IMG/VR virus record: IMGVR_UViG_3300027704_000017 | Span: 5,034 to 69,033 of that record | Length of the DNA: 64,000 bases | Source: a virus | Direction: 5' to 3' (one strand) | Shown here: in pieces, positions 1,469 through 22,625 of the stretch | Layout of the letters: every line of letters starts with the position of its first letter | Numbering within the stretch: the stretch's first letter is position 1 | Notes under the pieces: model-generated | What the model was told of the DNA's origin: nothing | Database searches by the model: none | What the model saw: only the letters and a program-made list of their open reading frames with translations | Translations under genes and position numbers: made by a program

Positions 1469-1477
1469 AAAAAGTTC

Positions 1478-1506
1478 TTGACATAGGAGGTTATTTGGAC
1501 TATACT
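1478..1506 (+). promoter_or_regulatory. sigma70-type promoter
   Basis: TTGACA-17bp-TATACT. Confidence 0.75.
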
Positions 1507-1522
1507 ATGTTAATAGAAAAGT

Positions 1523-1548
1523 AAAGGGGCTCTTTCTGGGCCCCTTTT
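1523..1548 (+). terminator. Intrinsic terminator after major tail gene
   Basis: AAAGGGGCTC-TTTCT-GGGCCCCTTTT hairpin plus U-tract. Confidence 0.7.
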
Positions 1549-1563
1549 GCTATCCGGAGAAAA

Positions 1564-2487: not shown

Positions 2488-2500
2488 ATAAGGAATAATA

Positions 2501-2950
2501 ATGGAACTTAAGAAATTAATGGTCGATACCAAAGCAGTCTGGGTTGACTTTCCGGGCTTACCTGGATTTGAAGTAGAGATAGCTAACTTATCTCGCAAAG
2601 AGTTGAATGGCCTTCGTAAGAAGTGTACTACAACTAAGTATGACCGTAAAACTCGTCAAGCTGTAGATAGCTTAGACGAAGAAAAGTTTGTTACAGAGTT
2701 TACCCTTGGTGTAGTTAAGGACTGGAAAGGTCTATCTTTAGAGCACCTCGAAACTTTACTACTAGTAGACATTGACGGACAAGATCCAAAGAAAGAGTTA
2801 GAATATAGCGCAGAAAACGCAGAGACTCTTGTTAGCTCTTCAACTGAATTTGACTCATGGCTCAACGAGGTAGTCTTTGATTTAGATAACTTTCGCTCAA
2901 AGCCAAAAGAACCAGTTATTCCAAAGGCTGGAAAGGTTCTTCAAGAATAG
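2501..2950 (+). CDS. Tail assembly chaperone (gpG-like)
   Basis: Acidic 149-aa ORF between tube and tape measure genes. Confidence 0.75.
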   Translation: MELKKLMVDTKAVWVDFPGLPGFEVEIANLSRKELNGLRKKCTTTKYDRKTRQAVDSLDEEKFVTEFTLGVVKDWKGLSLEHLETLLLVDIDGQDPKKELEYSAENAETLVSSSTEFDSWLNEVVFDLDNFRSKPKEPVIPKAGKVLQE

Positions 2951-2960
2951 CGACTCGAAT

Positions 2961-3281
2961 ATGACGCGAGAGCGTTATCTAAAGATGTGTGATCAACTCG
3001 GGCAAGAGCCTGATGAAGACGAGATTCCTCCTGCCTGGGAGGACTTTCCAGAAGTTGTACTAGATGCCCTAAATACTTTTAATTGTTTAGGGGATAGAAT
3101 GTACCCTGAAATAGGATACATGGGAAAAGACTTTACTAATCTAGGCTACTATATCTCTATATATGAAGTTATAGACAAAGAATTATTTTTAGAGATTCTA
3201 ACTTGGTTAGAGTCAAGGGCTATAGACCAATCTCAGAAAGCACTAAAAAGAGAGAGGGACAAGCTAAAGAGAAAAGCATAG
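2961..3281 (+). CDS. Tail assembly chaperone C-terminal part (gpT-like)
   Basis: Precedes tape measure; its frame is open from 2886, overlapping the upstream chaperone in +1 frame. Confidence 0.7.
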   Translation: MTRERYLKMCDQLGQEPDEDEIPPAWEDFPEVVLDALNTFNCLGDRMYPEIGYMGKDFTNLGYYISIYEVIDKELFLEILTWLESRAIDQSQKALKRERDKLKRKA

Positions 3282-6200: not shown

Positions 6201-7147
6201 TGGGACCAGAGGGAGAGCTTATAGCTTCAGTAGTCGAAGGTGCAATGATAATGGGAGAATCTTTTAGTGCCGCTTTTGACACAATGAATGATAAAAGTGC
6301 AACTACAGGAGAGAAAATGCAAGCAGGTCTGCAAGCGGCATCGTCTGCTTTGAATGCTATTGGTGGCATTATGGCGGCTAACTCCAAAGCCCAAATTAAA
6401 GAAGTAGATAATCAGATAGAAGCTGAAAAGAAGCGCGATGGCAAATCCGCAGGAAGTTTAGCAAAAATAGCTAAACTCGAAAAGAAAAAAGAAGCCATGG
6501 CTAAAAAAGCTTTTGAAGTCAATAAGAAAATGCAAATGGCTCAAGCAGTGGCAAGTACAGCAGCCGCAGTTATCGGAGCTCTAGGCGCTAAGCCTTGGGG
6601 CCCTTGGAACTTTGCACTTGCAGGAATGGTGGGCGCTATGGGCTTAGCTCAATTAGCTGTTATTTCAGGAACCTCCTTCCAAGGAGCAGGTACGAGTGCA
6701 GCTGCTCCCTCAGGCCCTTCCTCCATTTCTACAGGAAGCAGGGGTAATACTGTAGACACTGCCAAATCTAAATCAGCATCAGGAGAGCTTGGATATCTAC
6801 GTGGAGCAGATGGACAAGGTGGAGCCAATAGCTTTAAACCTGCATTCTCTGGATATAAGCACAGAGCTGGAGGAGGCTACGTAGTTGGGGAGCAAGGACC
6901 AGAGGTCTTTATGCCCGAAACTCCAGGAAACATTATCCCGTCTGGCCAAGGCATGGGCGGAACAACAAACGTTAACTTCTCTATCCAAGCAGTAGATGCA
7001 AGCGGTGTAGAAGATTTACTACTTAATCAAAGAGGAAACCTCATAGGCATGATGAGAGAAGCAGCAAACTCATACGGTCAAGACTTTATGGAAGGTATAG
7101 ACACTGCAGTATATACCCCTTCTACAGCAGGAGCTACTAAATACTAA
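3281..7147 (+). CDS. Tape measure protein (T5 pb2-like)
   Basis: Long Ala-rich helical protein; KLEPEILDELGI and GYVVGEQGPEVFMP motifs; GTG start overlapping upstream TAG. Confidence 0.9.
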   Translation: MADTITVTYRVKEDGSLQKISQGAEKAAQSTTKAGKAGDRYSKTQKGIAQTGLSAGKSMSKMASGMEGGLVPAYATLAAHVFAVTAAFGILSRSQSVKQLNEGLLFTGRAAGENLTIVTRHLREITDNAISSADAMKALAVGVSAGFSESQMEGLTKVAKGASLALGRDMTDALDRLVRGAAKLEPEILDELGIMVRLDTATQAYADTLGVSVNSLSQFERRMAFTNAIIAQGEEKFGALSLAVESNPFNMLAATFDNLVKSVMNFVNTVAGPIAGFLAGNMTALIATIMVLGTGVVRMMVPALTAGGAAAAEMAEGLAKSSKAAIGNTKTFKGAPRIYDSLVKKIQSGTASQKDFDQATTSLTKSINTHERQLVNFEKTTKGGTKAVEEKKKKLRESKSALLQLTTAQEMETLATRKATQADILNAASAGDLKLMIKLLKTEILAERAATVLSTAGKGMMAAAYLQVAAAARIAALSVKAFGLAALNAIPIIGQVIMIAMLLWEGIKWLFGSDAEETINPLAKVLEEGKERFAEFPNIINQMADSYEAAVTNSQRYIISITAMNGVIAQSVTQLAALQNAEKSAQRAAITSAQQKVKLAQKAKKDAEDRMANSAIAVNPVEDGEEFGLMAQMWQGTKELGGLFTGQTSLYGPSATADMSTYNDALEEAQANLKILGGLPPVGTTSDALLQGTTETMATLVTTLEAQRDATTKGSEEWEYFNKTAGEAQTLLDGLTKETLSTTIGEMQRLEGRVRKTTLSFKALRQIGIDTAAFFTKQNATFGDFKTPVDLLQKAVLAVSDTSKSQAQIDEIIASVGQFGVTGRESLTSISNAYTKLNNQINANALLNAIETERARGVSVSDEVAGKQILAELAAKNTILALDTLAASAGEKDILAAKVALLKAVNTERLAENALIDARVAKDTRLGGDQFGAGQAVGGYMEKNKVEFAAADDSGKFKMMGEAVNPLNEQLKKLGPEGELIASVVEGAMIMGESFSAAFDTMNDKSATTGEKMQAGLQAASSALNAIGGIMAANSKAQIKEVDNQIEAEKKRDGKSAGSLAKIAKLEKKKEAMAKKAFEVNKKMQMAQAVASTAAAVIGALGAKPWGPWNFALAGMVGAMGLAQLAVISGTSFQGAGTSAAAPSGPSSISTGSRGNTVDTAKSKSASGELGYLRGADGQGGANSFKPAFSGYKHRAGGGYVVGEQGPEVFMPETPGNIIPSGQGMGGTTNVNFSIQAVDASGVEDLLLNQRGNLIGMMREAANSYGQDFMEGIDTAVYTPSTAGATKY

Positions 7148-7872
7148 TGGCATATACAGACGTATTACCCGACCCCAATAACTTAATAACAGACTCTGGT
7201 AAAGCTAGCGGGACTGGAGGAGAAGGCTTTGCTTCGGTATCGCTTTCTTCTAAGTCTCCTACTATGTTTACACAAACTAACTCAGGAAGAATTACTTCTC
7301 GTCAAAAGGCGCAACAGAGTTGGTCTATTGATATAGGATACAATCCTATGACTCGTGAACAATTTGAGCCTGTATATAACTTTATACTTCAAAGAGGTAG
7401 AATGTCGCCTTTTAAAGTATCTTTACCTCAGAATAGAGTACCTCAAGATGCTACTTTTGCAGCGTATGTAGATGGGCCGGTTAATTTGTTTCCTACTACT
7501 AATACAGCAGGCGGGGTCACTTCGTTGCTTCTAGCTAATGATAGCGGAGATACTGGTACAGACTACGTAGTGGCAACTCATAAAACACCAAAACCCGGCG
7601 ATTTATTCAATATCTCAGACTCGAACCATAACAAAACATACCAAGTTACCAGAGTAGAAACTAATACTGACTACACAGGCTCACAGCCTACAACTAACCA
7701 AATTCGTATACAGTTTACTCCGGGTCTGTCAAAAGCTGTAACACATGCAGCGTCTGGTGTAATATTTCATAATCCGCTAATCAGAGTGTTATTAAAATCT
7801 GATGTACAACAATATTCTCTTAATGTAGACGGGCTATACTCGTTTTCATTAAAGCTACAGGAAGCATTATAA
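7147..7872 (+). CDS. Distal tail protein (T5 pb9-like)
   Basis: Follows TMP; LPDPNN...GFASVSL, WSIDIGYNPMTREQFEPV. Confidence 0.8.
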   Translation: MAYTDVLPDPNNLITDSGKASGTGGEGFASVSLSSKSPTMFTQTNSGRITSRQKAQQSWSIDIGYNPMTREQFEPVYNFILQRGRMSPFKVSLPQNRVPQDATFAAYVDGPVNLFPTTNTAGGVTSLLLANDSGDTGTDYVVATHKTPKPGDLFNISDSNHNKTYQVTRVETNTDYTGSQPTTNQIRIQFTPGLSKAVTHAASGVIFHNPLIRVLLKSDVQQYSLNVDGLYSFSLKLQEAL

Positions 7873-7873
7873 T

Positions 7874-10800
7874 ATGGCACATAGAACCCTACACGCAGAC
7901 CTCGAAGCATCTTTACTAGCGAATGATGCTTTTGCATATGCACACCTAGTAAAATTCGAAAAACCTATTGATACGGAAACAGGCTATCCCGTTAAAACAG
8001 CTAAAGACTACGCCTATATAAGCGATGGCTCTCATGATGTGTCCTTTGATGATGGAAGCAAAGATATCAATGGAAACGCTAACGGCTCACAAGTTTATAT
8101 TGCGAACAGGTTGAAGAAAGTAGGCAGTGTTACAGAAACAATACAAGCTCGCGCAAGTAATATAAATTTAGAAATAGATGCCATAGCTCTAAATACTACT
8201 TTTACGTCAGTATCTACATTTACTTCCACCACTTTCACTGCGGGGTCTAGTATAGTAGATGAGGGTTTTGCTGAAGGCGACACAATACTTTTAACTTCAT
8301 CAAACTCAAACAACACTGCTAAGATACGTATCGACTCTTTTTCTAATGAGAATAAAACTGCCTCGTATACTCCTATCAACCGATCAAGTTTATCTACTGG
8401 ATCTGCTAACTATACGTTTAGTTTTGCGTCCGACGAAGTGCAAGCAATTCTTCAAGACACTGGAGAAACCGGCTACGCAGGGTACATAAACCGAGAGGTC
8501 TTTATATATAAAGCGCATATTAACCCTGACACAGGTGTTATTATTGGAGCACCTTACTTACTTTTTAAAGGAATAATAGCTTCCGCAAAATTAAGCGAAA
8601 AATTAAGCGAAGATGTTACAAAAGACTCTAAGATTTCTTGGAGTCTTACTAGTCACTGGGGAGACTTTGTTCGTGTAAACGGTCGTCTTACTTCTGACCC
8701 AGAGCACAGAGCTTTAAACGGAGAAGGAGTATCTGACTCTTTAGCACTTATACGTCCGGAATACGGCAGCGATTTAGGATTTATGCACTCTGAACAAGCA
8801 CTTAATCTTGTTGCCAATTATAATGTTATGGTAACAAAGACTAAACTTAAAATGAAGAGAAAGTGGTATGGAGCTAAAACCTATAAGCAGGTCGAGTATC
8901 AGGAAGAGGAAGAGCGCGAAGTAGATTTACGCTTTAATCTGGATGCAAAAAGACTTCCTGTAGTTTACGGTGTTCAAAGAATCCAAAGCTTTCCTGTGTT
9001 TGTTGATACAAAGAATGATGACTCTAAGCAAGTATATGTAGCTTATGCAATGTGTGAAGGCGAGATCGGAGGTCTTTACGACATATATATAGATGACCAG
9101 TCTTCGATATGTATTGACAAAAACGACTTAACTACACGAAGTGGAGATGCTACTAACTCAGAAGTTATATGTACCGGACGTATGGATAGAGGAGACACTT
9201 TAACAGCACAAAACGTTTCTTCTGGCACAGCAGTATCTTATAATCCTATGACAGGAACTTTTGGATCGGGCTGGGAAGGTTACAATGGTACTGATGGCGC
9301 TTACGGCATATATCTTCGTAACCTCACACCTATTGCTGATACTTCAGTATCAGGCGGGGCCTCTACTCAAGGTGCCGGAATATACCATGAAAAAGGAACA
9401 AAACTAGACTCTCCTTTGCCTATGAAGCTTACTATGCACACAGGTAAACCTTTTCAAAAATCAGATGATACTTTATCTGCTATTGCTGCAGCAGGTAACT
9501 TTAAAATACAAACAGACTATTTTACAGGTACTGGAGATTACTGGGGACCTAACCATCAACTATTAGATACGGCTTATGTTACCGCACACTACACAATAGG
9601 AGAAGGCGATACAACTATTCCCGACTTAGAGTTTGTTGTAAGAGGAAAGGTTATAGATTGTTACGATTACGATGATTCTTTTGTACAAGATTCTTTTTAT
9701 TCTGGCTCTGATGCGGCTATTACCGCTTTTAATATAGGCGATATTGTAACTATAAAAAACACTAGTAATGCTACTCTAGGCACTTCTACTATTGCCGATA
9801 TATCTACTTATAAAGATACAAATAATAACGATGTTCATAGAGTTAGATTCCAAGACTTAGACAGAACTGATAGTAGTAATGTTGTGCACACTGCTTTTTA
9901 TATGTTAAACGGTAGTAATCAAAAGTATAGTTTTGCTACACATGATAATGTTTATGTTGATAGCTCTGTACCTGCAACTCTTACCGCTGTTACTTCATTC
10001 TCCGATAACTCAGGAGGTAGTAGTATAGACGCCACATTTACCTCTCCAAGCACTGCACTTCAAGAAGCTGTAAGTATATCTGACTTTGTAACAATAGTTG
10101 ATAATGCTGATTTAGCAGGCTCTGTAGCTGCTATTATTGATACTATGGGAAGTACTTTTGAGTTTACTAACTCTTCTGGAGTGCTTAGAGACATAGGCGG
10201 TGCTACTGGTGCCTCCTCGCTTGCATCAACTGCTAAAGTAATTATTAAAGATTGTATACAACTCTCAAGCTCTTCTAGCGATACGGATGATGCTTATAAT
10301 GGCATGATTGTAGAAGTTACTCGAAATTATAATGATAACTCTACGCACGTTCAAAAACATACAATTGTTGACTATGATGGAGGTACTCGAGTTGCCAAAG
10401 TTGATAAACCTTTTGATAATATCGCAGTCCCTCAAGCAGGCGATACTTTTAGAATTCTAAATAAAGGAGACAAAAGAGTTTCTTTAAACCCTACTATACA
10501 GTTGGTAGATTACTTGACTTCAGAAAGATATGGCAGAGGTCTTAATGTTCTAGAAGACCTGGACCCAGACTCTTTCAAGCAAGCAGCTCGTGATTGTGAT
10601 ACTCGATCAGACGTAACAATGCTGCTTGCAAATACGTCTGTTGCTTTAAATGCAGTGTACAAATTATTAGACACAAACAGCAAGTTAAGGTTCCAAGGAA
10701 AAGTAAAAACTATTACGGCTGTAACTGTTGGAGGAACTACCTATGACGAAGTTACCTTTACAGATGTTATAGGTAAAGTTGCCAAGAAATGGACTGACTA

Positions 10801-13800
10801 TGCTGTGTATGAAGATGCGGAATATGTGTGGCATAACGATAAAATTTACGAAAAGAGTGGAGCTGGGTCACTAGGCACAGCACCTTCTGGAAACAGCTCT
10901 AGTGTTAATCCGCTCACAAAAATCTCGGGAACGGGGCCTAGTACTATAGCTATAAATGTTTCTTTAAGTACTTTTGAAGGAAACCCTATAGTTAAAAAAT
11001 ATAACTCTAATACTACAAGCTTTGGAACAGGATACTCTTTGTATGATGCTGATAATGTAAAATATTGGAGATACTTAGGGTGGGATTCTCCTAGCCAAAG
11101 TCAAGTGACTAGGCATCAAACCAATGCTATTGTTAACACAACTAGTTCTGTATTTGAAAATATTAATGCTATGCTTGCACATTTTAATGGTATGCTTCGA
11201 TACGTTAATGGAAAGTACGAAATTGTAGTAAAGACAGCAACTGATACCTTTGGTACTGCTCAAAGTATCGGAGACGATGATATAATTGGAGCTATCAATG
11301 TTGAGGATGCAGGACAAAAAGGTACTTTTAATAGTGTTTCTGTTTCTATTCCCGACCCTCAAAACAGATACAACGGTCGCAGTGTAAACTTTATTAACTC
11401 TACCTATATAAAGCAAGATCGAAATGTTCCAAAGAAAGGAAACCTAAAAACTCCTTACATTACTAACTACTTTAACGCAAGAATAAATGCAAAACAGTAT
11501 CTTGAAGAATCCCGCAAGAACTTAAAAATAGCGTTTAAAATGGAGCCTAAAGGTTTATTGCTAACAGCAGGTAGTTTAATAAAAGTAACAAACACTAGAT
11601 TTAACTGGTCAGATAAACTCTTTAGACTTAGTAACTTAACTTTTACAGAAGACTGTCTTGTTAATGTAACTGCCGAAGAACACAGTGAAGAAGCTTTCTT
11701 AATCTCTACGATTGACGGAGGGTCTGTAACAGGTTCAGACGGTGGAGCTCCAGCAATTGTAACAATAGCTCCTCATACCAATCTTTCCATACCTGCTAAT
11801 AGTTTGAAAGGGGGTGCAAGACTTACGTGGACTAACTCAGCTAAATTTAATTCCGCTACTCATACTACGGAGATATGGAGGTCTAGTTCTAATGATGTTT
11901 CAACCGCAAGTATTGTAGGTCTAAGCAAATCTGGATTAAAAAGTGCCACAGGAGAATTTACAGATGCCGTTGTTACAGGAGGGGCCACCTTTTTTTACTG
12001 GGTTCGTTACTCGGTTGTTAATTCTGCTACTGTTATTAAAGAATTAAACTCCGTATATGTAGGGTCTGTTTCAGCTACGACCACGGACATTGTTAACGGG
12101 GTGGATGGAGATCAAGGAGTTAATACAGCTGCGGTCTACGCATACAAAAGAGCCAGCAGCGCCTTAGCGTCTTCCAACAAACCTAGTACTACTCGTACTT
12201 GGACTTTTGCTACAGGTACTTTTAACAACACAGATTTAGGAAACGGGTGGACCTCTACAGTGCCTTCAGGTACTGATGATGTATATGTTTGCGTAGCAGT
12301 ATCAGCGGCTGAGGCAGATACTGATAGTGTTGCTGCGGCTGATTGGAGCGCACCTCAACTATTTGCATCCAATGGTGCTGATGCTGTTAATAGTGCTCCT
12401 GTCTTTGCTTATAAGAGATCTGCAAGTGCAGTAAATAATAAACCTAGTACTACTCGTACTTGGACATTTTCGACAGCAGTATTTAATAACATAAATTTAG
12501 GAAATGGATTTACTTCAACAGTGCCTTCCGGTACTGATGACATTTATATATGTACTGCAGTAGCTTCTAGTGTTAACTCTACTGATAATGTTGCTGCAGC
12601 TGATTGGAGTGCTGCTGAACTTTTTGCCTCTAACGGAGACGATGGAGACGATGGAGATGATGGAGCTGACGGTGTTGACGGCATTACAGTAGTTCTGTCT
12701 AATGAAAGTCACTCTCTTCTTACAGCAGCAAACGGGGATGTTACATATACTGGCTCTGGCACTACTATACGACTATACGAAGGTACCACCGAGCTTATAT
12801 ATGACGGAGTAGGTACTGCAAGCTCTAGGTGGAAAGCGACGACAACAGGAGTTTCTGTGACTGCAGGAAGTGTTGCCGACAGTGGAGACTTTGCAACAGT
12901 AGGAAACCACAGCTCTATGACCGCTAACGTAGCTTCTGTTACTTATAACATCACGGGTAAAAGAGCAAATGGAACTGCGTTTAGCTTTGCAAGAATACAA
13001 TCTTTAACTAAAACTATAACAGGTACTGACGGAGACCCTGGTGCTGCAGGTATTAATACTGCGGTTGTATATGCGTATCAAAGAGCTAGTAGTAATCCGG
13101 GTAACAAGCCTAGCACTACCCGTACTTGGTCTTTTGGTAGTGGCTCCTTCAATTCTTCTGATCTTGGTAATAGTTGGACCTCTATTATACCTACAGGCTC
13201 TGCGGATTTGTATTTCTGTGCTGCAGTAGCTAATGGAACAGGGTCTACGGATACTGTAGCGGCAGGAGACTGGACGGCCGCGCAATTATTCTCTTCTAAT
13301 GGAGATAACGGTGCTGCGGGAGCCAATGGTGCTCCGGTATCTTTATATCGTAAAAGTACAAGTAACTCTTCTGCACCAGCTTCGTTTAGCGGTACCTTTA
13401 CATATACTTTTGCTACGGGTGCAGTAACAGGAGGTACTCTTAATAGCTGGACAGCTACAGTTCCAACTTTAGCTGCAGGAGAGTATGCATGGGTAAGACA
13501 AGCTACTGCCAGCGCCAGCGCAACTACTGATACTATTCCTACTAGCGAGTTCTCAGCTGCTGTAGTTCATAGTGGAGTAGGAGAAGATGGCGCAAGTGTG
13601 ACAGGTGCGGCAGGTAACTCTAATGCCTTAGTAGCCTTGTATAGAGTATCCAGTAGTGGTTCTTCCGCACCGGCTTCCTTTAGTGGTACCCTTACATATA
13701 CTTTTGCTACGGGTGCGGTAACAGGAGGTACTCTTAATAGCTGGACTCGTACAATACCTACAGTAGCTCAAGGGTCTTATTTATGGGTAAGACAAGCTAC

Positions 13801-14494
13801 TGCAAGTTCTAATACTAATACTGATACTATTGCTATAGGGGAATGGTCTGCTGCTGTTGTGACAAGTGCTTCTGGTGTTAATGGGGACCCAGGCGCTGCA
13901 GGTGTCAATACTGCGCCGGTCTTTGCGTATAAACGAGCTAGTAGTACACCTGGAAATAAGCCAGGCACTACCCGTACTTATACTTTCTCAACGGGTGTAT
14001 TTAATAATTCAAGTCTAGGAAATAGCTGGACTTCGACTATACCTAGCGGTACAACCAATCTGTATATATGTACTGCAATCGCATCTTCGACGTCTAGTAC
14101 GGACAATGTTGTAGCGGGGGATTGGAGTAGTGCCCAACTATTTGCAGCTAGTGGGGTTGACGGAGATACTGGGCCGAGCGGTTTCTTATTCTTTTTATCC
14201 GGAGACTCTAGTACTGATAATGCTCATATTAGTGCGAGCAGCCCCGCAACAGGACAGATAGCAATTGTAGAGAATACAAGCGGCGCGCAGGCAGGTTATA
14301 GATATAGCGGCTCGGCATGGGTATCTAAGGACCTAATTAATACAGGTATAATCGTGGCCGATGCTATTAAGTCTGAACAACTAGAAATCTCTGCGGATTC
14401 TGGCAATGATAGAATCCAGATGGACGGAACAAATAATGTAATTAAAATATACAGTGGAGGCGTTCTTCGTATTAAAATAGGAAATCTTGCCTAA
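7874..14494 (+). CDS. Baseplate hub (pb3-like) fused to repeat-containing central fibre
   Basis: AHLVKFEKP N-terminus, LPVVYG, YLTSERYGRGL hub motifs; FNIII-like segment; C-terminal IKIYSGGVLRIKIGNL typical of central fibre ends. Confidence 0.85.
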   Translation: MAHRTLHADLEASLLANDAFAYAHLVKFEKPIDTETGYPVKTAKDYAYISDGSHDVSFDDGSKDINGNANGSQVYIANRLKKVGSVTETIQARASNINLEIDAIALNTTFTSVSTFTSTTFTAGSSIVDEGFAEGDTILLTSSNSNNTAKIRIDSFSNENKTASYTPINRSSLSTGSANYTFSFASDEVQAILQDTGETGYAGYINREVFIYKAHINPDTGVIIGAPYLLFKGIIASAKLSEKLSEDVTKDSKISWSLTSHWGDFVRVNGRLTSDPEHRALNGEGVSDSLALIRPEYGSDLGFMHSEQALNLVANYNVMVTKTKLKMKRKWYGAKTYKQVEYQEEEEREVDLRFNLDAKRLPVVYGVQRIQSFPVFVDTKNDDSKQVYVAYAMCEGEIGGLYDIYIDDQSSICIDKNDLTTRSGDATNSEVICTGRMDRGDTLTAQNVSSGTAVSYNPMTGTFGSGWEGYNGTDGAYGIYLRNLTPIADTSVSGGASTQGAGIYHEKGTKLDSPLPMKLTMHTGKPFQKSDDTLSAIAAAGNFKIQTDYFTGTGDYWGPNHQLLDTAYVTAHYTIGEGDTTIPDLEFVVRGKVIDCYDYDDSFVQDSFYSGSDAAITAFNIGDIVTIKNTSNATLGTSTIADISTYKDTNNNDVHRVRFQDLDRTDSSNVVHTAFYMLNGSNQKYSFATHDNVYVDSSVPATLTAVTSFSDNSGGSSIDATFTSPSTALQEAVSISDFVTIVDNADLAGSVAAIIDTMGSTFEFTNSSGVLRDIGGATGASSLASTAKVIIKDCIQLSSSSSDTDDAYNGMIVEVTRNYNDNSTHVQKHTIVDYDGGTRVAKVDKPFDNIAVPQAGDTFRILNKGDKRVSLNPTIQLVDYLTSERYGRGLNVLEDLDPDSFKQAARDCDTRSDVTMLLANTSVALNAVYKLLDTNSKLRFQGKVKTITAVTVGGTTYDEVTFTDVIGKVAKKWTDYAVYEDAEYVWHNDKIYEKSGAGSLGTAPSGNSSSVNPLTKISGTGPSTIAINVSLSTFEGNPIVKKYNSNTTSFGTGYSLYDADNVKYWRYLGWDSPSQSQVTRHQTNAIVNTTSSVFENINAMLAHFNGMLRYVNGKYEIVVKTATDTFGTAQSIGDDDIIGAINVEDAGQKGTFNSVSVSIPDPQNRYNGRSVNFINSTYIKQDRNVPKKGNLKTPYITNYFNARINAKQYLEESRKNLKIAFKMEPKGLLLTAGSLIKVTNTRFNWSDKLFRLSNLTFTEDCLVNVTAEEHSEEAFLISTIDGGSVTGSDGGAPAIVTIAPHTNLSIPANSLKGGARLTWTNSAKFNSATHTTEIWRSSSNDVSTASIVGLSKSGLKSATGEFTDAVVTGGATFFYWVRYSVVNSATVIKELNSVYVGSVSATTTDIVNGVDGDQGVNTAAVYAYKRASSALASSNKPSTTRTWTFATGTFNNTDLGNGWTSTVPSGTDDVYVCVAVSAAEADTDSVAAADWSAPQLFASNGADAVNSAPVFAYKRSASAVNNKPSTTRTWTFSTAVFNNINLGNGFTSTVPSGTDDIYICTAVASSVNSTDNVAAADWSAAELFASNGDDGDDGDDGADGVDGITVVLSNESHSLLTAANGDVTYTGSGTTIRLYEGTTELIYDGVGTASSRWKATTTGVSVTAGSVADSGDFATVGNHSSMTANVASVTYNITGKRANGTAFSFARIQSLTKTITGTDGDPGAAGINTAVVYAYQRASSNPGNKPSTTRTWSFGSGSFNSSDLGNSWTSIIPTGSADLYFCAAVANGTGSTDTVAAGDWTAAQLFSSNGDNGAAGANGAPVSLYRKSTSNSSAPASFSGTFTYTFATGAVTGGTLNSWTATVPTLAAGEYAWVRQATASASATTDTIPTSEFSAAVVHSGVGEDGASVTGAAGNSNALVALYRVSSSGSSAPASFSGTLTYTFATGAVTGGTLNSWTRTIPTVAQGSYLWVRQATASSNTNTDTIAIGEWSAAVVTSASGVNGDPGAAGVNTAPVFAYKRASSTPGNKPGTTRTYTFSTGVFNNSSLGNSWTSTIPSGTTNLYICTAIASSTSSTDNVVAGDWSSAQLFAASGVDGDTGPSGFLFFLSGDSSTDNAHISASSPATGQIAIVENTSGAQAGYRYSGSAWVSKDLINTGIIVADAIKSEQLEISADSGNDRIQMDGTNNVIKIYSGGVLRIKIGNLA
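12110..14170 (+). repeat. Six ~85-aa internal domain repeats (two types) with Gly-X-Y linkers
   Basis: NTAxVxAYKR...KPSTTRTWTF...W...DWSAxQLF x4; LYR...APASFSGTxTYTFATG...WVRQATA x2; GDDGDDGDDGADGVDG linker. Confidence 0.85.
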
Positions 14495-14513
14495 ACCATG
14501 GAAAAAATAAATC

Positions 14514-14542
14514 TTGACATAATAGCCCAAGTTAGCTATAAT
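14514..14542 (+). promoter_or_regulatory. sigma70-type promoter for fibre operon
   Basis: TTGACA-17bp-TATAAT. Confidence 0.85.
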
Positions 14543-14562
14543 TCTGTAATGGAGAATATACA

Positions 14563-14901
14563 ATGAGTGCAGCCCGATACAACCTAGTTATTGACCAAGG
14601 TTCCGACTTTGCGATTAGCTTTACAGTTAAAGAAGATGGATCAGTTAAAAACCTGACGGGATACTCTGCGCGTGCGCAAATGAGAACATCAAGGAATGCT
14701 ACGTCTATTGCCGCTACCTTTACGTGCACTATTGCTACCCCCACTAATGGAACAGTTGTAATGTCATTGGCAAATGGTGCTAGCTCAAGCTTAACAGCAG
14801 GAACCTATGTGTATGATTTAGAAGTATTTACTGCTAATAACGCAGCTGTAGTGAGACTTATACAAGGCTCGGTAGATCTTACTCAAGAGGTTACACGATA
14901 A
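14563..14901 (+). CDS. Collar / BppU-like fibre attachment protein (T5 p132-like)
   Basis: NLVIDQGSDF...NLTGYSARAQMR...YVYDLEV...LIQG. Confidence 0.7.
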   Translation: MSAARYNLVIDQGSDFAISFTVKEDGSVKNLTGYSARAQMRTSRNATSIAATFTCTIATPTNGTVVMSLANGASSSLTAGTYVYDLEVFTANNAAVVRLIQGSVDLTQEVTR

Positions 14902-15266
14902 TGGCAATTACTATTACAGCAACACCCATACAGAACGGTATAGCAGTCTCAGGTACTACGACTACTATTACCGCATCTGGGATAGCTCTAGGAAATACTG
15001 AAGCCTCAGCAATGGGTATTAGTAATATTACAGGACTTTCTGCAACAAACGTACAAACTGCAATCGAAGAACTAGCAGGTAATAATTTTAGGCAGGATAC
15101 CACGCCTACAGGTTCACAAGTCTCCGAGGGAGATACATGGTATGACACGGATGATAATCAACTTAAAGTATATCGCGAAACAAGTAGCGGAGTTTTTCAG
15201 TGGGCACCTATAATGGTAGGTGGCGCTGGAGGAGATTCCGATACACTTGATGCAGGATCCTATTAG
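14901..15266 (+). CDS. Virion structural / fibre adaptor protein
   Basis: ATNVQTAIEEL and EGDTWYDTDDNQLKVY motifs typical of fibre proteins. Confidence 0.55.
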   Translation: MAITITATPIQNGIAVSGTTTTITASGIALGNTEASAMGISNITGLSATNVQTAIEELAGNNFRQDTTPTGSQVSEGDTWYDTDDNQLKVYRETSSGVFQWAPIMVGGAGGDSDTLDAGSY

Positions 15267-15281
15267 GATTTGGAGTAAATA

Positions 15282-16265
15282 ATGGCTCAAACAATTAAAA
15301 TTAAAAGAAGTACCGGAACGGGTAAACCCTCATCAGTAGATCAAGGCGAGTTATTCTTTGCCTATGGTACAGGCGGTACTTATGGTAAAAAACTATCTAT
15401 AGGTAACGTAGCTGGAGGAACAAATACTCCTGAGATTATTGGTGGTTCTTACTACACTGCTATAATTGATGCTGCAACTAATTCTAATACTGCAAGCAAG
15501 CTCGTTCTGCGAGACGGCTCAGGTAACTTTAGTGCAGGAACAATTACTGCAAATTTGACAGGTAACGTTAGTGGAAGCGCTGGAACTGTTACAAGTATTT
15601 CTGCACATGATACTGATGATCTAAGTGAAGGATCTAGTAACGTATACTTTACAGATGCACGAGTATCGACTAGAGCAGATACGATACTAAACCACTCTAA
15701 TCATGGTAATATTACTGTATCTAAGGTCGGAGCTGAATTACGCTTTTCAGCGGCTGCACAGTATGCCGATAGTGATGTACAATCATACTTATCTGGAGGC
15801 ACAGGAGTAACTCTTAGTGGTTCTGGTGCGTTTAGTATTGGACAGGCTGTTGCAACCAATAGCAACGTTACTTTTGGTACCATTGGTTGTGGTAATATTA
15901 CTACTTCAGGGTACATACGTGGACCTTCCACCATGACAATTGATCCTGCAACACACGGTGATGATACAGGAACACTAGTCATTGCAGGTAACTTAACAGT
16001 TCAAGGCGCTACAACTACCGTAAACTCTAATACAGTCGCTATAGGCGATAGTATTATGACATTAAACAGTGATGAGACGGGCACACCCTCTGCAAATGCA
16101 GGTCTTGAAGTAGAAAGAGGAAATGCAACAAATGTGTCTTTTCTTTGGAACGAAACAAATGATAACTGGACAGTAAGCGATGGAAGTGCTACTTCCGTTC
16201 TGTTGACCGCAGCTAACTTTGCAGCTACGTATGCAGGTACTATAGACGGCGGCACTTACTCATAA
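15282..16265 (+). CDS. Tail fibre protein
   Basis: MAQTIKIKRS N-terminus, VLRDGSGNFSAGTITANL, TDDLSEGSSNVYFT, GNLTVQGATTTVNS motifs. Confidence 0.7.
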   Translation: MAQTIKIKRSTGTGKPSSVDQGELFFAYGTGGTYGKKLSIGNVAGGTNTPEIIGGSYYTAIIDAATNSNTASKLVLRDGSGNFSAGTITANLTGNVSGSAGTVTSISAHDTDDLSEGSSNVYFTDARVSTRADTILNHSNHGNITVSKVGAELRFSAAAQYADSDVQSYLSGGTGVTLSGSGAFSIGQAVATNSNVTFGTIGCGNITTSGYIRGPSTMTIDPATHGDDTGTLVIAGNLTVQGATTTVNSNTVAIGDSIMTLNSDETGTPSANAGLEVERGNATNVSFLWNETNDNWTVSDGSATSVLLTAANFAATYAGTIDGGTYS

Positions 16266-16307
16266 TATTAATCTCTAGCGTATATACGCAGGTACTAGGA
16301 GAGCCAA

Positions 16308-16559
16308 ATGGCACAAACAATAAAATTAAAACGCTCGGCAGCGACGGGTAATGTTCCCACTGCCGCCCAAATTGACTTGGGAGAGCTTGCTATAAATACC
16401 ACAGATGGTAGGGTATACATGAAAAAGGGTGATAATAGTATTCTCACCCTTAACCCCCATGCTTTATCTGAAATTACAAATGATATGTGGGAAGTCACTA
16501 GTACAGTGCCTAGTTCCGGAGGGTCACACCCTGCAGGTTATGTCTGGTACATAGTATAA
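16308..16559 (+). CDS. Small fibre-associated protein
   Basis: MAQTIKLKRS...GELAINTTDGRVY, paralogous to the N-terminus of the previous gene. Confidence 0.65.
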   Translation: MAQTIKLKRSAATGNVPTAAQIDLGELAINTTDGRVYMKKGDNSILTLNPHALSEITNDMWEVTSTVPSSGGSHPAGYVWYIV

Positions 16560-16560
16560 C

Positions 16561-19500
16561 ATGACTATTAAGGTGCACCACGGTGGGAATCTCGTAGAGC
16601 CCACGCAGATTATTGTAAAGGGTGCTTCTGGCACTCTTCGTGCAGTTAACTTCGTCTTAGCAAAAACCGCAAACACCTTTCTTACTGCGTGGCAAGGGAT
16701 CTACTCGACTAATCGAGGGACTACTACTGCCTTTAATACTTCAACCGCTTTTACTACTACGTTCAATACCAGTGCTACTACTAATGTAAACACTACTACT
16801 GCGTATGACACTACTTTTGATACCACCATAGCTACTAGCGTAAGCACTACGACTACTTTTGACACAGTATTTGATACAAGCCTTATCACCGCTAAAAGCA
16901 CCTCTACCGCTTTCAATACCACCTTTGCTACTAGCTTAGCAACAACAGTTGGCACCTCTACCGTATACCTTACTACCTTTGAGACTACTCGGGCAAGTAA
17001 CACAGTTTACGAAACTACTAGAGGCACTAGTAAGTCTACTACGACTACTTTTGTAACGGCATTCGACACAAGTTTGGGTACTTCTCGTAGCACTACCTCT
17101 ACTTTTGCAACTAATTTTGCTACTAGTACCTCTGTGACAACAGCTACAGTGTATAATACTACACGCGCTACCTCTACAAGTCGCACCACAACGTTTGATA
17201 CAGCGTTTCAAACCTCTAATATTACTACAGTGGCTACGCTTACTTCAAGAGCTACAGGTACGAGTAAAGCTACTGCAACTGTATATAATACTACACTAGC
17301 TACGGCTACGAGTAGTATTACTGCAAGAGGGACAACTACTGTATATAATACTACTCTAAGTACTACTACTGCGTATACTACTACTTTCAATACGGCTTCT
17401 GTATTCGTAACTCAGCGAGCAACCACTACTACTTATAATACATCTTATAATACTGCTATAGCTACGGGACGTAGTACAACTACAACTTTTACAACTGCTA
17501 CTACTCGTGGTACTACTACTGCTTTCAATACTACGACTACCTTTAACACGTCGAAAGCTACAACTACTACATATACCTCTTCATTTAACACCGGCAGAGC
17601 AACTAGTAAAGCTACGGCAACTTCGAGAAATACAGTATATACGTCTACTTTTGGAACCTCTCGGGGTACTGCTACCAGTGTTGCAACTGCTACAGCCTAT
17701 ACTACTGCTACCACTTTTAACACGAGTAGGGCTACTACGAGTGTATTTAATACTGCCCGTAATACTGCTGAGAGTCGTAATACTACTACTAGTAGAAACA
17801 CGGGTACAACGTTTGGAACTACTACAGCTTATGTAACTAATAGTGTATTTGGTACAAGTATAAGTACTGCTGAGAGTCGTAATACTATCACTAGTAGAGG
17901 TACCTCTACAGCGTTTGGAACTACTACAGCTTATACTACCGGTACTACGTTTAATACAAGTATAAGTACTGCTGAGAGTCGTAATACTACTACCAGTAGA
18001 GGCACCTCTACAGCGTTTGGAACTACTACAGCTTATACTACCGGTACTACGTTTAATACCAGCAGAAACACATTGGAAACTCGTAACACCGCTCGTAACA
18101 CGGCTGAGAGTCGTAACACTGCGACCAGCAGAAACACATTGGAAAGTCGTAACACCGCTCGTAACACGGCTGAGAGTCGTAACACTGCGACCAGCAGAAA
18201 CACATTGGAAAAACACATTGGAAAGTCGTAACACCGCTCGTAACACGGCTGAGAGTCGTAACACTGCGACTAGCAGAAACACTACTACTAGCTATAATAC
18301 AGCGAAAAATACAACTACTAGCTATAACACCGCTCGTAACACCGCGGAGAGTCGTACCACTGCGACCAGTAAAAACACTACTACTAGCTATAATACAGCG
18401 AAAAATACAACTACTAGCTATAACACCGCTCGTAACACCGCTGAGACCCGTAGCACTAGTACAGTTAAAGGTACACTCACTTCGTTTAATACAGCGAAAA
18501 ATACAACTACTAGCTATAATACAGCGAGAAATACAAGTACTAGCTATAATACAGGTCGTGGCACATATAGAGGTACGTCTAGAACAACTACGGCCTCATA
18601 CAGCGCAGACCAATATAGCAGGTCCTCGCCGGTGACGTCATCATCATACTTCTGGAGACATAACGGACTCATTCCCAACCAGGCGTATCTTATATGGGCG
18701 GGGGTTGATAAGTCTCCTACTGCAATTCCTTACACGGCTACTAGTTTTGCGAATGCCGATGGGTACACGTACTATAAAAGGGCTTTAGTCGAAAATGTCG
18801 CTGGTAGTTTTAAAGGTACCGGATTCACGGAGAATTATTATAGAATAAGAAGAAGACTTACTAATGCCTCTTATACTACAAGCTTTGTAACAAGCTATCT
18901 TACTACTTTTGGTACGAGTAAAAACACTTCAACTACTTTTGGTACGAGTAAGAATACTTCAACTACTTTTGGTACAAGCAGAAATACTACTACGTCCAAG
19001 AATACAACTACAGCCTATACTACTGCAACTACTTTTGGTACGAGTAAGAATACTGCAACTACTTTTGGTACGAGTAAGAGTACTTCAACTACTTTTGGTA
19101 CAACTACAGCCTATACTACTGGAACTACTTTTGGTACGAGTAAGGCTACTTCAACTACTTTTGGTACAAGTAAGGCTACTTCAACTGTTTTTGGTACCTC
19201 TACTGCGTATACTACTGCTACTACTTTTGGTACTACTTATACTACTAACACTGTATTTGGTACTGCTACTGCGTATACTACTGCTACTACTTTTGGTACT
19301 ACTTATACTACCAACACTGTATTTGGTACTGCTACTGCGTATACTACTGCTACTACTTTTGGTACTACTTATACTACGGGCACTACTTTTAATACTAGTC
19401 GTAACACTGCTGAGTCTCGTACTACTGGAACGAGTAGAAACACTAGTACGGCCTTTGCTACTTCTACAGCGTATGTAACTAATAGTGTGTTTAATACTAG

Positions 19501-20941
19501 TCGTAATACTGCTGAGTCTCGTACCACTGGAACGAGCAGAGGTACTACTACGGCCTTTGCTACTTCTACAGCATATGTAACTACGAGTGTATTTAATACT
19601 GCCCGTAATACTGCTGAGTCTCGTACTACTGGAACGAGTAGAGGTACTACTACGGCCTTTGCTACTTCTACAGCGTATGTAACTAATAGTGCGTTTAATA
19701 CAAGTATAAGTACTGCTGAGTCTCGCACGACTTCTACTAGTAGGAACACGGGTACTGCTTTTGCAACTTCTACAGCGTACACTACGGCTACTACCTATAA
19801 TACTAGTCTCGCAACTACTACTACCTATAATACTGCTCTCAATACGGCAGAAAGTAGAAATACTAGTAGTGTATTTGGTACCTCTACCGCTTTTAACACA
19901 GGTATAGTTACAACTAGAGGCACTACTTTTAATACCACTACAGCCTATACTACTACCTTTGGAACAAGTATTATTACAGACCGTGCTACTACTACAGTCT
20001 ATGCTACTACACTAGGAACACTAACTTCTAGAAGCACTGTCAGCACCTTTGGTACAAATACTACTCGTAGCAGTACAACTACATTTACTACTACCTTTGT
20101 TACTGCTAATGCTACAACAAGAGCTACAACTTCCGTATTTAACACTAGTATTGCAGTTTCTACAAACAGAGGCACAAGCAAAGCTACGACTACTACGTTT
20201 AATACGTCTAGAGCTAGTACTACTACGTATACTACTACTTTTAATACTACTACTACGTTTAATACTAGTAAGAATACTACTACGTTGTTTAATACAACTA
20301 CTGCGTTTAATACTACGACTACATATACTACTGCGTTTGATACTGCATTAGGTACAGCTAGAACTACTACTTTTAATACGACTACTACGTTTAATACAAC
20401 GCATAATACTACGACTACGTTTAACACAACTACTGTGTTTAATACTACTATTGCTACTACTACAGCTTTTACCACTACTTTTGGTACTTCCGTAGCCACT
20501 ACGCTTGCGACAACTACCTCGTATAATACAGTATTCAATACTAGTTTAGCAACTACTACTACTTTTAATACATCTTTGAGTACCTCAAAGAGCACTACTA
20601 GTGCTTATGACACAACTTTCGATACTAGTGGAGGAACTACAAGAGCTACTACCACTACATATACAACGTTGTTTGGAACTTACGCAGCCACAACACTTGC
20701 TACAACCACTGCGTTTACTACGGCCTTTGCAACAAGCTTAGGCACAACTAAGACTACGGTCACTCCGGGCGCTGTAACAGTATATGAGACTTTAGCTACC
20801 ACTACTCTTGCTACAGCTACATCTGTTTCTACTAATACTGTAATTTATGAAAGAGTTACAGGTACGGGAGCTACTACCGAAGTTTTATCAGGGTCAGATT
20901 ATAACACATCATATTGGGATGGATCACAATGGACAGAATAG
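16561..20941 (+). CDS. Giant Thr-rich repeat fibre protein (~1455 aa), split in this sequence by a 13-bp duplication at 18198-18223
   Basis: ORFs 16561..18231 and 18017..20941 fuse in frame when one AAACACATTGGAA copy is removed; same repeat units on both sides. Confidence 0.8.
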
Positions 20942-21084
20942 AAAAAGAACTAAAAGGTATGTCTCATAGACTAGAGACTACTATTGAAATAATCATGGAG
21001 CACTTTAGAGAGACAGAAGAGCGTATAGAAGAACTTGAAGACATCATACAGGAGCTAAGAGATGGCCTTGCAAAAACTGGCTGA
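20929..21084 (+). CDS. Small coiled-coil protein (51 aa)
   Basis: Manual translation MDRIEKELKGMSHRLETTIEIIMEHFRETEERIEELEDIIQELRDGLAKTG; overlaps both neighbours. Confidence 0.65.
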   Translation: MDRIEKELKGMSHRLETTIEIIMEHFRETEERIEELEDIIQELRDGLAKTG

Positions 21085-21937
21085 AAATGATGTACTTGGA
21101 AATAGTGCTGCACACTTCTTTAAATCGGGGAACATAGTAAGGGGCTCAGAGATTGATGGTCTTGCAGAACTGAAGGACCTTCTCCCTACTAAAGGCCCTA
21201 ATGGAACTAATGTAGAGTATGATATATGGTATGATATGGCAGACCAAGAGAGAATTCATGGTTATATGTATACAGATGCAATGGCTAAGTTCTTATATAT
21301 TAGAGCTGCAGGAGCGTATTGGACACATAAGATTATGCAACAAGCCTCTAAAGAGCCTATCACAGAAGAAGGAGAAAGAATTTTTCAAGACCTTGCAGAG
21401 AATAGTGTAGACAAGTACAAACTTCGTAAAGCTAGATCCCAGCATGATTTTGTTATTTTTCTTCCTGGTACTAATATAATCAAAGAAGCTTTAGACTGGG
21501 ATAAGATGGAGAACGCTATAAAACAAGGGGCTAAGTTAAAGTGCCACCCAATTACAGCTCCTGGTCTAGTTGCCAACCTTAAACACAGGTACGGGGAAGA
21601 GAACATACTAGATAAGAAGCTCTCCGGTCACGAACTGATGGCTGGAGCAAGTATTGTAGGATGTTGCGAGAATTCAGAGATGGGTATTGTATCCCTAGCT
21701 CAGGGCAAAAAGACTTACTTGTTTGGCCACGGACATAAACATTTAACATATAGTGCTCTATACAATACTATATGGAAAGGGGGCAAGGCTGATGTAAATA
21801 AGCTAAAATCTATACTCTCTGCCAAGTATTCGGGAATGATACCAGTAATATCAGAAAGCCCTCAAGAGTATATTAACTCATACTTTAACCACTACAAGGA
21901 GATGCCTCATGTCAAACCTAGAAATAATAATCCTTGA
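21062..21937 (+). CDS. Putative GT-B glycosyltransferase (capsule biosynthesis KpsS/KpsC-like C-terminal domain)
   Basis: KCHP followed by ELMAGASIVGCCENSEMGIVSLAQGKKTYLFG resembles the KxHP...NSxxGxEA...GK pattern. Confidence 0.5.
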   Translation: MALQKLAENDVLGNSAAHFFKSGNIVRGSEIDGLAELKDLLPTKGPNGTNVEYDIWYDMADQERIHGYMYTDAMAKFLYIRAAGAYWTHKIMQQASKEPITEEGERIFQDLAENSVDKYKLRKARSQHDFVIFLPGTNIIKEALDWDKMENAIKQGAKLKCHPITAPGLVANLKHRYGEENILDKKLSGHELMAGASIVGCCENSEMGIVSLAQGKKTYLFGHGHKHLTYSALYNTIWKGGKADVNKLKSILSAKYSGMIPVISESPQEYINSYFNHYKEMPHVKPRNNNP

Positions 21938-22625
21938 GTGTAATGACTTAACGGCTTTAACAGTAAATTCAATAAAGAAAAATATGCCCAGAGCTAAGTA
22001 TAAAGTTGTACCAGCGAAAGGAAAGAGTAAGATAGGTACTGCTTTATCTCACGCAAAGGGCATAACCTTAGTAGTTACGAGCGGCTTAGTTCTTAATATT
22101 AAACATGGAGACTTGCCTCCTGAAAGTAAACTAGAGCAATATGCCTTGTCTGTTAGTAGAGAGGGGGTTTATGTAGACCATCCTAAGCACTCCACTTCTT
22201 ACAACTTAGTAAATAGCAATATAACTAAGGGCTTTATTGACCTCTGTATCTTCATAATCAATCCTGCTAAGTGGTTTGAGATACCTACTAAAGACTCAGG
22301 AGTTGTAGGAGATAAAAAGACTTTATTTATGCCTAGATATATTAATCACAAGTCAGATCCTATACTGAAGGACTGTATAGGGGCTTACGAGGCATTTAAA
22401 TACGGTATGGCAGGAGAGACTGCTGCAGTGTATAATTACTTACCTAATTTAATCTCTGGTAAAGCAACACCGATAGAGACATTTGCATATTGTTTTGATA
22501 AGCTGGAAGAGTATTCGGAAGGATTACCGGAATATAAAAGAAAACAAGTACTTAATCTTGCACAAAAAACTAAAACAAGAGTAGGTAAGCTAAGGCCTCA
22601 GCTATTGGCCACTAAAGGAGAATAA
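21909..22625 (+). CDS. Putative degenerate GT-A glycosyltransferase-like protein
   Basis: IIIL...LTVNSIKKNMP N-terminus and DLCIFIINPAKW resemble GT2/GT8 fold elements; no clear DxD. Confidence 0.35.
   Translation: MSNLEIIILECNDLTALTVNSIKKNMPRAKYKVVPAKGKSKIGTALSHAKGITLVVTSGLVLNIKHGDLPPESKLEQYALSVSREGVYVDHPKHSTSYNLVNSNITKGFIDLCIFIINPAKWFEIPTKDSGVVGDKKTLFMPRYINHKSDPILKDCIGAYEAFKYGMAGETAAVYNYLPNLISGKATPIETFAYCFDKLEEYSEGLPEYKRKQVLNLAQKTKTRVGKLRPQLLATKGE

Follow-up and report, generated by a model that had tools for sequence, protein, structure and literature searches.

Known fibrous proteins are built as coiled coils, collagens, triple beta-spirals or helices, solenoids or cross-beta assemblies. 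In the stalk of streptococcal antigen I/II one chain is folded back, with an alpha-helix and a polyproline-II helix, over ~50 nm; TxT antifreeze proteins carry flat Thr ladders on a beta-sheet face, and the needle of T4 gp37 consists of six antiparallel strands from three chains. In its structural description, gp37 has a collar domain D10 made of residues 811–881 and 1010–1026 with the tip between them, and its fold-back part is limited to ~200 residues that end an otherwise one-way fibre of 1026 amino acids (aa) and carry seven His-bound iron ions (PMC6957217). T5 pb1 (1396 aa) is described as a parallel homotrimer whose C-terminal intramolecular chaperone is cleaved off (PMC4690869), and Thr-rich hydrophilic peptides are reported to favour beta-hairpins (PMC11936462). 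We analysed a 64,000-nucleotide (nt) stretch of viral DNA, here called the window (positions 5,034 to 69,033 of IMG/VR record IMGVR_UViG_3300027704_000017, a metagenomic assembly of 69,033 bases that is ~70% complete), and in it a gene for a giant Thr-rich protein at 16561–20941 on the + strand. The two arms of this protein are complementary to each other in mirror order, and we think it probable that the chain folds back on itself as an antiparallel beta-ribbon of great length, capped by a variable tip domain.

Mirror complementarity of the two arms

The interval 16561–20941 is, as given, two frames and not a single open frame. The earlier note on this DNA treated it as one unbroken gene and overlooked a frameshift at an exact 13-nt tandem duplication, which is what breaks the frame. 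Protein positions below refer to the read-through product, obtained by joining 16561–18210 to 18224–20941 by coordinates in a script. This product has 1455 aa, among them 536 Thr (37%), 6 Pro and 4 His. The parts of the gene are as follows.

16561..18231, + strand: first open reading frame (ORF1), 556 aa, covering the N-terminal domain and the greater part of the N arm; its six final codons (KHIGKS) are out of frame after the duplication
16561..16710, + strand: conserved N-terminal domain, ~50 aa, MTIKV..G..VEP.QI.VKG..GTLR.VN.V, kept in all full-length relatives
16711..18583, + strand: N arm, residues ~51–670, with a strict (T/large)-(small) dipeptide phase
17763..18059, + strand: N-arm 34-aa (102-nt) unit, 2.9 copies (R,R,R,F,Y,F), one copy more in the relative L002
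18064..18277, + strand: R-only block, 3 x 22 aa, R502–R568, with Arg as the sole large basic/aromatic residue
18198..18223, + strand: 13-nt tandem duplication, AAACACATTGGAA twice, exact, within the third 22-aa R-repeat, shifting the frame by +1
18212..20941, + strand: second reading frame; remaining N arm, tip domain, C arm, C-terminal domain and stop
18584..18883, + strand: central tip domain, residues ~671–770, ending ..YYRIRRR, Thr-poor and Tyr/Trp-rich
18884..20803, + strand: C arm, residues ~771–1410, with the dipeptide phase rule as in the N arm
19190..19390, + strand: aromatic-only block, 3 x 22 aa, F873–F939, mirror partner of the R-only block
19388..19779, + strand: C-arm 34-aa unit, 3.8 copies, one copy above the N arm of the window
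20804..20941, + strand: conserved C-terminal domain and stop, ..ER.T..G..TEV.SGS..N..YWDGSQWTE, conserved across the family

Large residues stand on even positions only over ~50–665 and on odd positions only over ~766–1400. This rule covers all F, Y, R, K and E and most L and I; the opposite phase holds just A, S, T, N and G and some V. Neither arm contains a phase slip, so that the alternation is unbroken over about 616 and 635 residues. The large residues spaced by 4 or 6 on one phase of the Thr-rich arms, which the earlier note had described, are present over ~620 residues per arm.

An antiparallel register is defined by a constant n+c, where n and c are the paired positions in the N and C arms. 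The first 25 pairs, listed by hand in the earlier note, were reproduced letter for letter in an inner register with n+c=1441, 24 of the 25 being basic-aromatic; over all 52 pairs of this register, 48 are aromatic-basic, three aromatic-aliphatic and one K-K. The Arg block and the aromatic block face each other as had been claimed, R502–R568 lying exactly opposite F939–F873. The register had also been said to continue past a skipped 34-aa unit, and it does so at n+c=1475, reaching about residue 82 on one side and residue 1393 on the other, with 50 aromatic-basic, 30 aromatic-aliphatic and 12 other pairs among 92. The window shows this 34-aa register jump because its C arm has one more 34-aa unit than its N arm.

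A scan with the tip domain identified an IMG/VR contig, L002, whose ORF of 1469 aa is intact and shares 97% identity with the window product. L002 pairs in a single ungapped antiparallel register, n+c=1489. When residue identities were permuted and positions kept, complementary aromatic/non-aromatic pairs in this register fell from 111 to 56.9±5.3 (maximum 78 in 10,000 permutations), and same-class pairs, of which L002 has 3, rose to 23.0±4.0. Other antiparallel registers of L002 contain at most 42 complementary pairs, and parallel registers at most 39. As a further control, blocks of 10 or 34 residues were shuffled within the C arm, so that the units were kept and their order lost. The best scores of L002, L008 and L005 were 151–165, compared with 11.6–21.4 (maximum 34.2) after block shuffling and 15–23 in parallel controls; L002 itself scored 160.75 in the antiparallel and 22.75 in the parallel direction. 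Comparison of a complement score with shuffles and with parallel alignment, a check proposed in the earlier note, was thus decisively positive.

Fragments containing the C arm only (L006, L010 and L011) gave just background scores of 8–14. The units therefore do not pair locally, and a local-hairpin (meander) model was ruled out. A DNA palindrome as the origin of the mirror was ruled out as well, the DNA containing just short, imperfect inverted repeats of 14–34 nt. The mirror complementarity of the two arms is confirmed as a real feature of the sequence.

Relatives, compensated changes and the tip

Scans with the C-terminal domain gave four further full-length genes in viral contigs, with 54–60% identity between lineages, and the window product aligns end to end with L002, L005, L007, L008 and L009. 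From metagenomes we kept 80 of at least 91 loci found and took 33 unique full-length proteins (311–1781 aa), and a protein search added 28 short relatives of 275–352 aa. The family is large and marine and spans 282–1781 aa, a six-fold variation in length. All members have the N-terminal domain MTIKV..EP.QI.VKG..GTL and the C-terminal domain TEV.S.S..N.RYWDGSQWTE with Thr-rich arms between them, and the window protein, read through, fits this new family in both terminal domains, arms and central tip. The C-terminal 45 aa are a small conserved domain that forms a family of its own. No Pfam or PHROGs family was found for either window piece or for the intact L002 protein, and none of 50,697 GenBank phage records was matched in tblastn by the tip or by the N-terminal or C-terminal 60 aa. 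A tip-domain search over 1.84 billion representatives returned three matches, all of them unrelated repeat proteins on inspection.

The register is a property of the whole family. With S as the register sum n+c and L as the protein length, the best antiparallel register lies at S−L = 15–23 in 31 of the 33 unique full-length metagenomic members, and the register in this range ranks second or third in the remaining two. Therefore, residue ~20 pairs with the last residue at any length. Single registers run for 573–789 residues per arm; in the longest protein, L055, N65–853 is paired with C950–1738 in one register of 789 aa per arm. In eight proteins that each have one long register, R or K is paired with F, Y or W in 738 of 748 cases, and aromatic residues stand opposite R, K, I, L or V. 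Summed over these eight, the pairs comprise 707 aromatic-basic, 173 aromatic-aliphatic, 9 aromatic-aromatic and 3 basic-basic. The Thr-poor tip, located by composition alone as the lowest-Thr segment in members from 282 to 1781 aa, is central: the lengths of its N and C flanks are correlated (r=0.88, n=66) and differ by a median of 12 residues. L075 and L083 are outliers whose lowest-Thr segment lies away from the register centre.

Pair positions are conserved in the well-aligned outer arms of four lineages, and several pairs have swapped sides: R/F versus F/K and F/L at n=296, R/F versus F/K at n=316, and R/F versus F/K and F/R at n=356. The polarity of the inner block, which has a basic N arm and an aromatic C arm in the window and L002, is reversed in L005, L008 and L009. 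Insertions and deletions (indels) are matched between the arms as well. L002, which has four copies of the N-arm 34-aa unit versus three in the window, lacks 10 aa at window residues 643–652 (N arm) and within the tandem copies at window residues 779–798, a range that takes in 789–798, the mirror partner of 643–652. Compared with L029 (84% identical, both proteins having one register), L055 carries N-arm insertions that measure 32, 14, 12 and 76 aa from the outside in, and C-arm insertions that measure 76, 12, 14 and 16+16 aa from the inside out. For S=1803 their positions mirror each other, the three inner pairs to within a few residues and the split 16+16 insertion up to ~30 residues off its mirror range. 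Together they make four compensated indel pairs, equivalent in a protein to the compensatory changes of an RNA stem.

Between lineages the tip is hypervariable around a common motif, GGY.Y.RG...YY.[IV]RRR, and even between the window and L002 it is 89% identical (11 of 100 positions differ) as against ~97.8% elsewhere. The tip is likely to be the receptor-binding domain, a role that fits because it is the fastest-evolving part and because relatives outside the family were not found. In an AlphaFold2 model of the short relative P0030 (32-row alignment), the homologous tip reached a predicted local distance difference test (pLDDT) score of ~90 and residues 1–30 reached 74–82. Strands at 130–140 and 220–230 flank the tip in this model, and the register of P0030 (S=362) predicts 130–140 to lie opposite 222–232. 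Fold searches with the model gave no clear match in the PDB (best Z 3.4) or in BFVD (best E 5.8e-3, with a Gp38-domain protein at E 0.12). The best BFVD match, W8G0E8, is a 347-aa viral protein aligned over 112 columns at 18% identity; with a length like that of the short members, it may belong to the family. In L075, L062 and L091, the tip domain is absent and the arms are joined by a turn of 16–25 aa. Receptor binding in these three proteins must lie elsewhere, if there is any, or they must have another role.

The same kind of mirror register recurs in an unrelated context, a group of seven proteins of ~1075–1315 aa from other uncultured phages (P0005–P0011). They contain a baseplate-wedge domain (PF23786, phrog_17744) and continue with a middle domain of unknown family and a C-terminal Thr-rich region. 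Six of the seven have one dominant antiparallel register of ~160–265 residues per arm, with scores of 31.8–37.5 compared with 8.0–8.3 (maximum 12.8) in block shuffles of these six; the seventh, P0007, scored 18.5, the shuffle control covering the other six only. The principle therefore extends beyond one gene family or tail type, and another tail part seems to make use of the fold-back module as well.

The proposed ribbon and its rivals

On our reading, the gene would code for the long side fibre of an uncultured marine siphophage, a distant relative of T5, and its product would be one giant hairpin. The conserved first ~50 and last ~45 residues would meet at the virion-proximal end, the N arm (~620 aa) would run outward, and the C arm (~640 aa) would return antiparallel to it in a fixed register, with the variable Tyr/Trp-rich domain of ~100 aa at the turn as the likely receptor-binding tip. 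Fibre length would evolve through gain and loss of repeat units, matched in both arms. Fold-back antiparallel pairing had been put forward in the earlier note, and it is supported by the register statistics, by the family-wide register and by the compensated indels.

In an antiparallel ladder, side chains that are neighbours across the strands project from one face, and every second pair is on the same side of the sheet. Given the strict two-residue phase and a constant, odd n+c, all large residues and half of the Thr would therefore lie on one face. This face would be a Thr-Thr ladder in which, at intervals of 4 or 6 residues, an aromatic side chain on one strand meets Arg, Lys or an aliphatic one on the other, and these pairs would set the register. 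An even slip of 2 puts large residues opposite Thr, and offsets of 4–14 give many same-class clashes; the large pairs would thus act as register pins. The opposite face would have small residues only (Ala, Ser, Thr, Asn and Gly). Because it excludes large polar residues over more than 600 residues, which solvent exposure would not need, we infer that it is packed, most simply on other copies, with three hairpins forming a narrow six-stranded tube similar to the T4 gp37 needle. A face restricted to small residues suggests packing beyond a monomeric two-stranded ribbon. A second constant register marking an interface between subunits was not identified, and just the offsets of +/-2 avoid clashes. 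At ~0.33 nm per residue, 620 residues per arm would extend up to ~200 nm and 789 residues to ~260 nm, and twist or supercoiling would shorten the fibre.

Several findings weigh against this reading. The 10-aa K-6-F-4 and 34-aa RRRFYF units are self-complementary on reversal and occur in both arms, and therefore some complementarity is automatic; the order of the blocks, the R-only and aromatic-only blocks and the covariation go beyond it. Structure prediction leaves the arms unsupported, without contradicting them: in the P0030 model they have pLDDT below 40 and lack secondary structure. Residues 551–890 of the window product, modelled from a 2-row alignment, gave a mean pLDDT of 34. The protein has no cultured relative among the GenBank phage records and no family match in Pfam or PHROGs, its role as a fibre rests on synteny and a neighbouring attachment motif, and the window copy of its gene is not intact. 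A hairpin and antiparallel pairing between molecules predict the same sequence pattern.

Thirteen of the 29 long (at least 700 aa) full-length members, moreover, need one uncompensated jump of 6–66 aa, and the other 16 pair in one register. The expectation in the earlier note that homologues would show compensating indels and swaps in both arms thus had a mixed outcome: it holds for the window and L002, for L029 and L055 and for the side swaps, and the single jumps of these 13 go against it. The jump is 34 aa in the window, 22 aa in L007 and 44 aa in L009. Nearly identical genes differ in the same way: L008 and L007 (100% identical) and L009 and L024 (100%) each differ in length by 22 aa, L077 and L078 (99.6%) by 20 aa, and L025 and L026 (99.7%) by 16 aa. 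In the close pairs compared, uncompensated differences are single repeat units between nearly identical contigs, and the register jumps may be assembly collapse, young variants or tolerated bulges. The window's additional 34-aa unit complements itself (R16/F22, R10/Y28 and R4/F34) and could in principle fold into a small side hairpin. A separate observation concerns the 956-aa genes L087 and L089, which are 99.8% identical: a 42-aa unit is confined to the N arm in one of them and to the C arm in its counterpart. The balanced L091, 93% identical to both, is without either unit; this trio may be a snapshot of compensation in progress or may reflect repeat collapse in assembly.

A constant n+c fits an antiparallel duplex as well as a hairpin, and the size-restricted small face suggests contacts between chains. 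We nevertheless consider it unlikely that the N and C arms pair between molecules, in antiparallel or domain-swapped chains: the ends of a fibre must differ, one proximal and one distal, the centre of symmetry is exactly where the variable tip sits, the turn of just 16–25 aa in L075, L062 and L091 fits a hairpin, and zipping from the turn would be the simpler folding path. Somewhat less probable still is a beta-solenoid or a parallel in-register trimer in which the mirror is a by-product of repeat evolution. The TxT motif does recall solenoid antifreeze proteins. Most known phage fibres are parallel trimers (PMC12143355), and some repeat units are palindromic by themselves. Solenoid turns, however, would normally interrupt an alternation that is here unbroken over more than 600 residues, leaving no short coils to stack in parallel; in a parallel trimer the copies of the 66-aa Arg-only block would lie against one another; parallel registers score 15–23 compared with 151–165; and parallel models do not explain the mirror-order compensated indels and side swaps. 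We give equally little credence to mucin-like spacers, extended and largely disordered, with heavy O-glycosylation and stiffened by sugars through the products of two downstream genes. The 37% Thr content, the structureless arms in AlphaFold2 and weak glycosyltransferase leads for these two neighbours, found downstream in 59–62 loci, would suit such spacers. Unlike a mucin-like Ser/Thr/Pro region, the window protein has just 6 Pro in 1455 aa, is strictly periodic and shows long-range complementarity with covariation, which is unexpected of disorder. The glycosyltransferase assignments fall below every curated threshold, and glycosylation would be possible on a paired ribbon too and so is not exclusive to this model.

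The state of the window copy is a separate question. Tandem Repeats Finder reports the duplication at 18198–18223 with period 13, 2.1 copies and 100% matches, and the frame at 18212–20941 lacks a start codon of its own in register with the repeat. Exactly these 13 nt are absent at the corresponding site of L002, and the duplicated junction had 0 matches in other viral contigs. The stretch 17900–18500 is present in public marine and seawater metagenome runs of 11 studies; contigs from public runs over 17500–18700 are pieces of 57–140 nt inside repeats, and no listed piece bridges 18198–18223. The window gene is also short of one 34-aa N-arm unit relative to L002. These defects could be either an assembly error or a real defective variant. 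With the frame broken and the N arm one unit shorter than the C arm, a dead gene in a lineage without a functional long fibre is a serious possibility, though one we lean against. Side fibres are dispensable in some phages, and laboratory lambda reportedly lost its own. On the other hand, the remainder of the gene has no further stops and shares 97% identity with its intact counterpart in L002, near-identical contigs elsewhere differ by single units, and both defects lie within tandem repeats of a metagenomic assembly, where short-read assembly errs.

Tail-module context and comparison with known fibres

Positions 293–16559 of the window are the tail module of a distant T5-like siphophage. They encode a tail tube (~31% identical to the tail tubes of cultured T5-like phages), a p140-like baseplate tube, two chaperones, a tape measure and a pb9-like distal tail protein, together with a 2206-aa hub protein, an LtfC-like collar protein and three small or medium ORFs; the fibre gene comes directly after this module. 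Two of these three have a tail-fibre N-terminal motif. The main neighbours are as follows.

7874-14494: 2206-aa ORF at the position that hub and central-fibre proteins occupy in T5; Phage-tail_3 match weak (E 1.1e-6), no PHROGs family
14563-14901: LtfC-like ORF, PF23926 E 6e-4 and phrog_3304 1.5e-19, 1.7 kb upstream of the fibre gene
15282-16265: 327-aa ORF with the fibre N-terminal motif MAQTIKIKRS, as in the 83-aa ORF; matches virion structural protein families
16308..16559, + strand: 83-aa ORF abutting the fibre gene (stop TAA at 16557–16559, fibre ATG at 16561)
21062..21937, + strand: 291-aa gene of unknown function (phrog_26179), directly downstream of the fibre gene
21909..22625, + strand: 238-aa gene, second member of the cassette, with tblastn matches in 59 loci

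The 327-aa ORF, homologues of which lie upstream of the long fibre gene in several loci, appears to be a second, shorter fibre or a proximal fibre segment. Residues 1–50 of the 83-aa ORF match the PHROGs tail-fibre N-terminus (MAQTIKLKRS..., best 1.4e-9). A tblastn homologue of this ORF is found upstream in 11 of 46 loci, and a small ORF of 72–83 aa abuts the fibre start in 9 of 15 loci inspected. These small ORFs have two unrelated N-terminal types, MAQTIKLKRS.. and MGQKLDFNIEDAG..., and both types end in ..G[HY]VW[FY][I]V just ahead of the fibre start codon; the shared ending hints at a conserved docking strand. It is plausible that the 83-aa ORF encodes an adaptor between virion and fibre, and no larger protein joining it to a fibre turned up, which is weak evidence.

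Two conserved genes follow downstream. Among 65 loci with 1 kb or more of downstream sequence, 62 have the 291-aa gene within 600 nt of the fibre gene. PF05159 (capsule-synthesis-type glycosyltransferase) gave weak matches to 6 of 23 members, with a best E of 0.015 that falls short of the cut-off, and an Atlas cluster at rank 17 had 13% PF05159; a profile search against PDB sequences gave no match. The 238-aa gene matched Atlas clusters with PF00535 (family-2 glycosyltransferases) at a score of 0.94 with 149–154 shared features, and gave no match in Pfam or against PDB sequences. The two genes could encode fibre-specific chaperones or enzymes that glycosylate the Thr ladder.

Searching full-text literature outside subscription journals and supplements, we found no description of such a fibre; the sole paper on a "threonine-rich" phage subject was about the host S-layer. 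In a recent atlas of 16 tail-fibre structural classes, a term search found neither "hairpin" nor "threonine" (PMC12143355). Our broadest proposal is a new class of fibrous protein: a length-programmable fold-back beta-ribbon with a two-letter cross-strand code and RNA-stem-like evolution, ~200–260 nm long, probably bundled by its small face and possibly glycosylated by two phage enzymes, and reused on siphophage fibres and myophage baseplate wedges across the ocean virome. We regard the case for this whole as evenly balanced. If true, it would be a new fibrous-protein architecture in which a readable pairing rule sets the register over hundreds of residues, and the rule could serve in designing rods whose length is chosen and whose tip carries a binding domain. 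The architecture would also account for a gene cassette that is common in marine viruses and has so far gone unannotated, offer a clean natural example of compensatory evolution of indels at the protein level, and suggest how phages of the ocean make very long and thin fibres for finding hosts, the length of which may serve host encounter.

Like the antigen I/II stalk, the proposed fibre would bring two complementary repeat regions together, with an adhesive tip at the far end and both termini at the anchor. It differs in that its arms are beta-type dipeptide repeats and its expected length is about four times greater. With Thr-rich hairpin peptides and TxT solenoids it shares the use of Thr, which strongly favours beta-strands (PMC11936462); their strands or coils, in contrast, are tens of residues long, compared with 573–789 residues per arm in the fibre family.

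T5 pb1 is similar in size and is likewise a presumed long side fibre for first host contact, with the same place in the tail module after the hub and an LtfC-like collar gene. In contrast to pb1, the window protein is without an S74-like chaperone domain (in Pfam) or a PHROGs match, and its halves are mirror-complementary.

The T4 gp37 needle is similar in that its chain runs out to a tip and back, leaving both domain ends proximal, as sequence would predict for the window protein, and in that a thin beta structure has its receptor-binding part where the chain turns. Searches of PHROGs and Pfam with both window pieces and L002 gave no sequence or profile similarity to fibres of the gp37 type. 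The gp37 needle has iron-coordinating HxH repeats, whereas the 4 His in 1455 aa of the window protein include none that is periodic in the arms, and the arms of the new family are Thr-rich with an aromatic/basic pairing rule. In the new family, the fold-back would be not the end of a fibre but the whole protein, up to 1781 aa.

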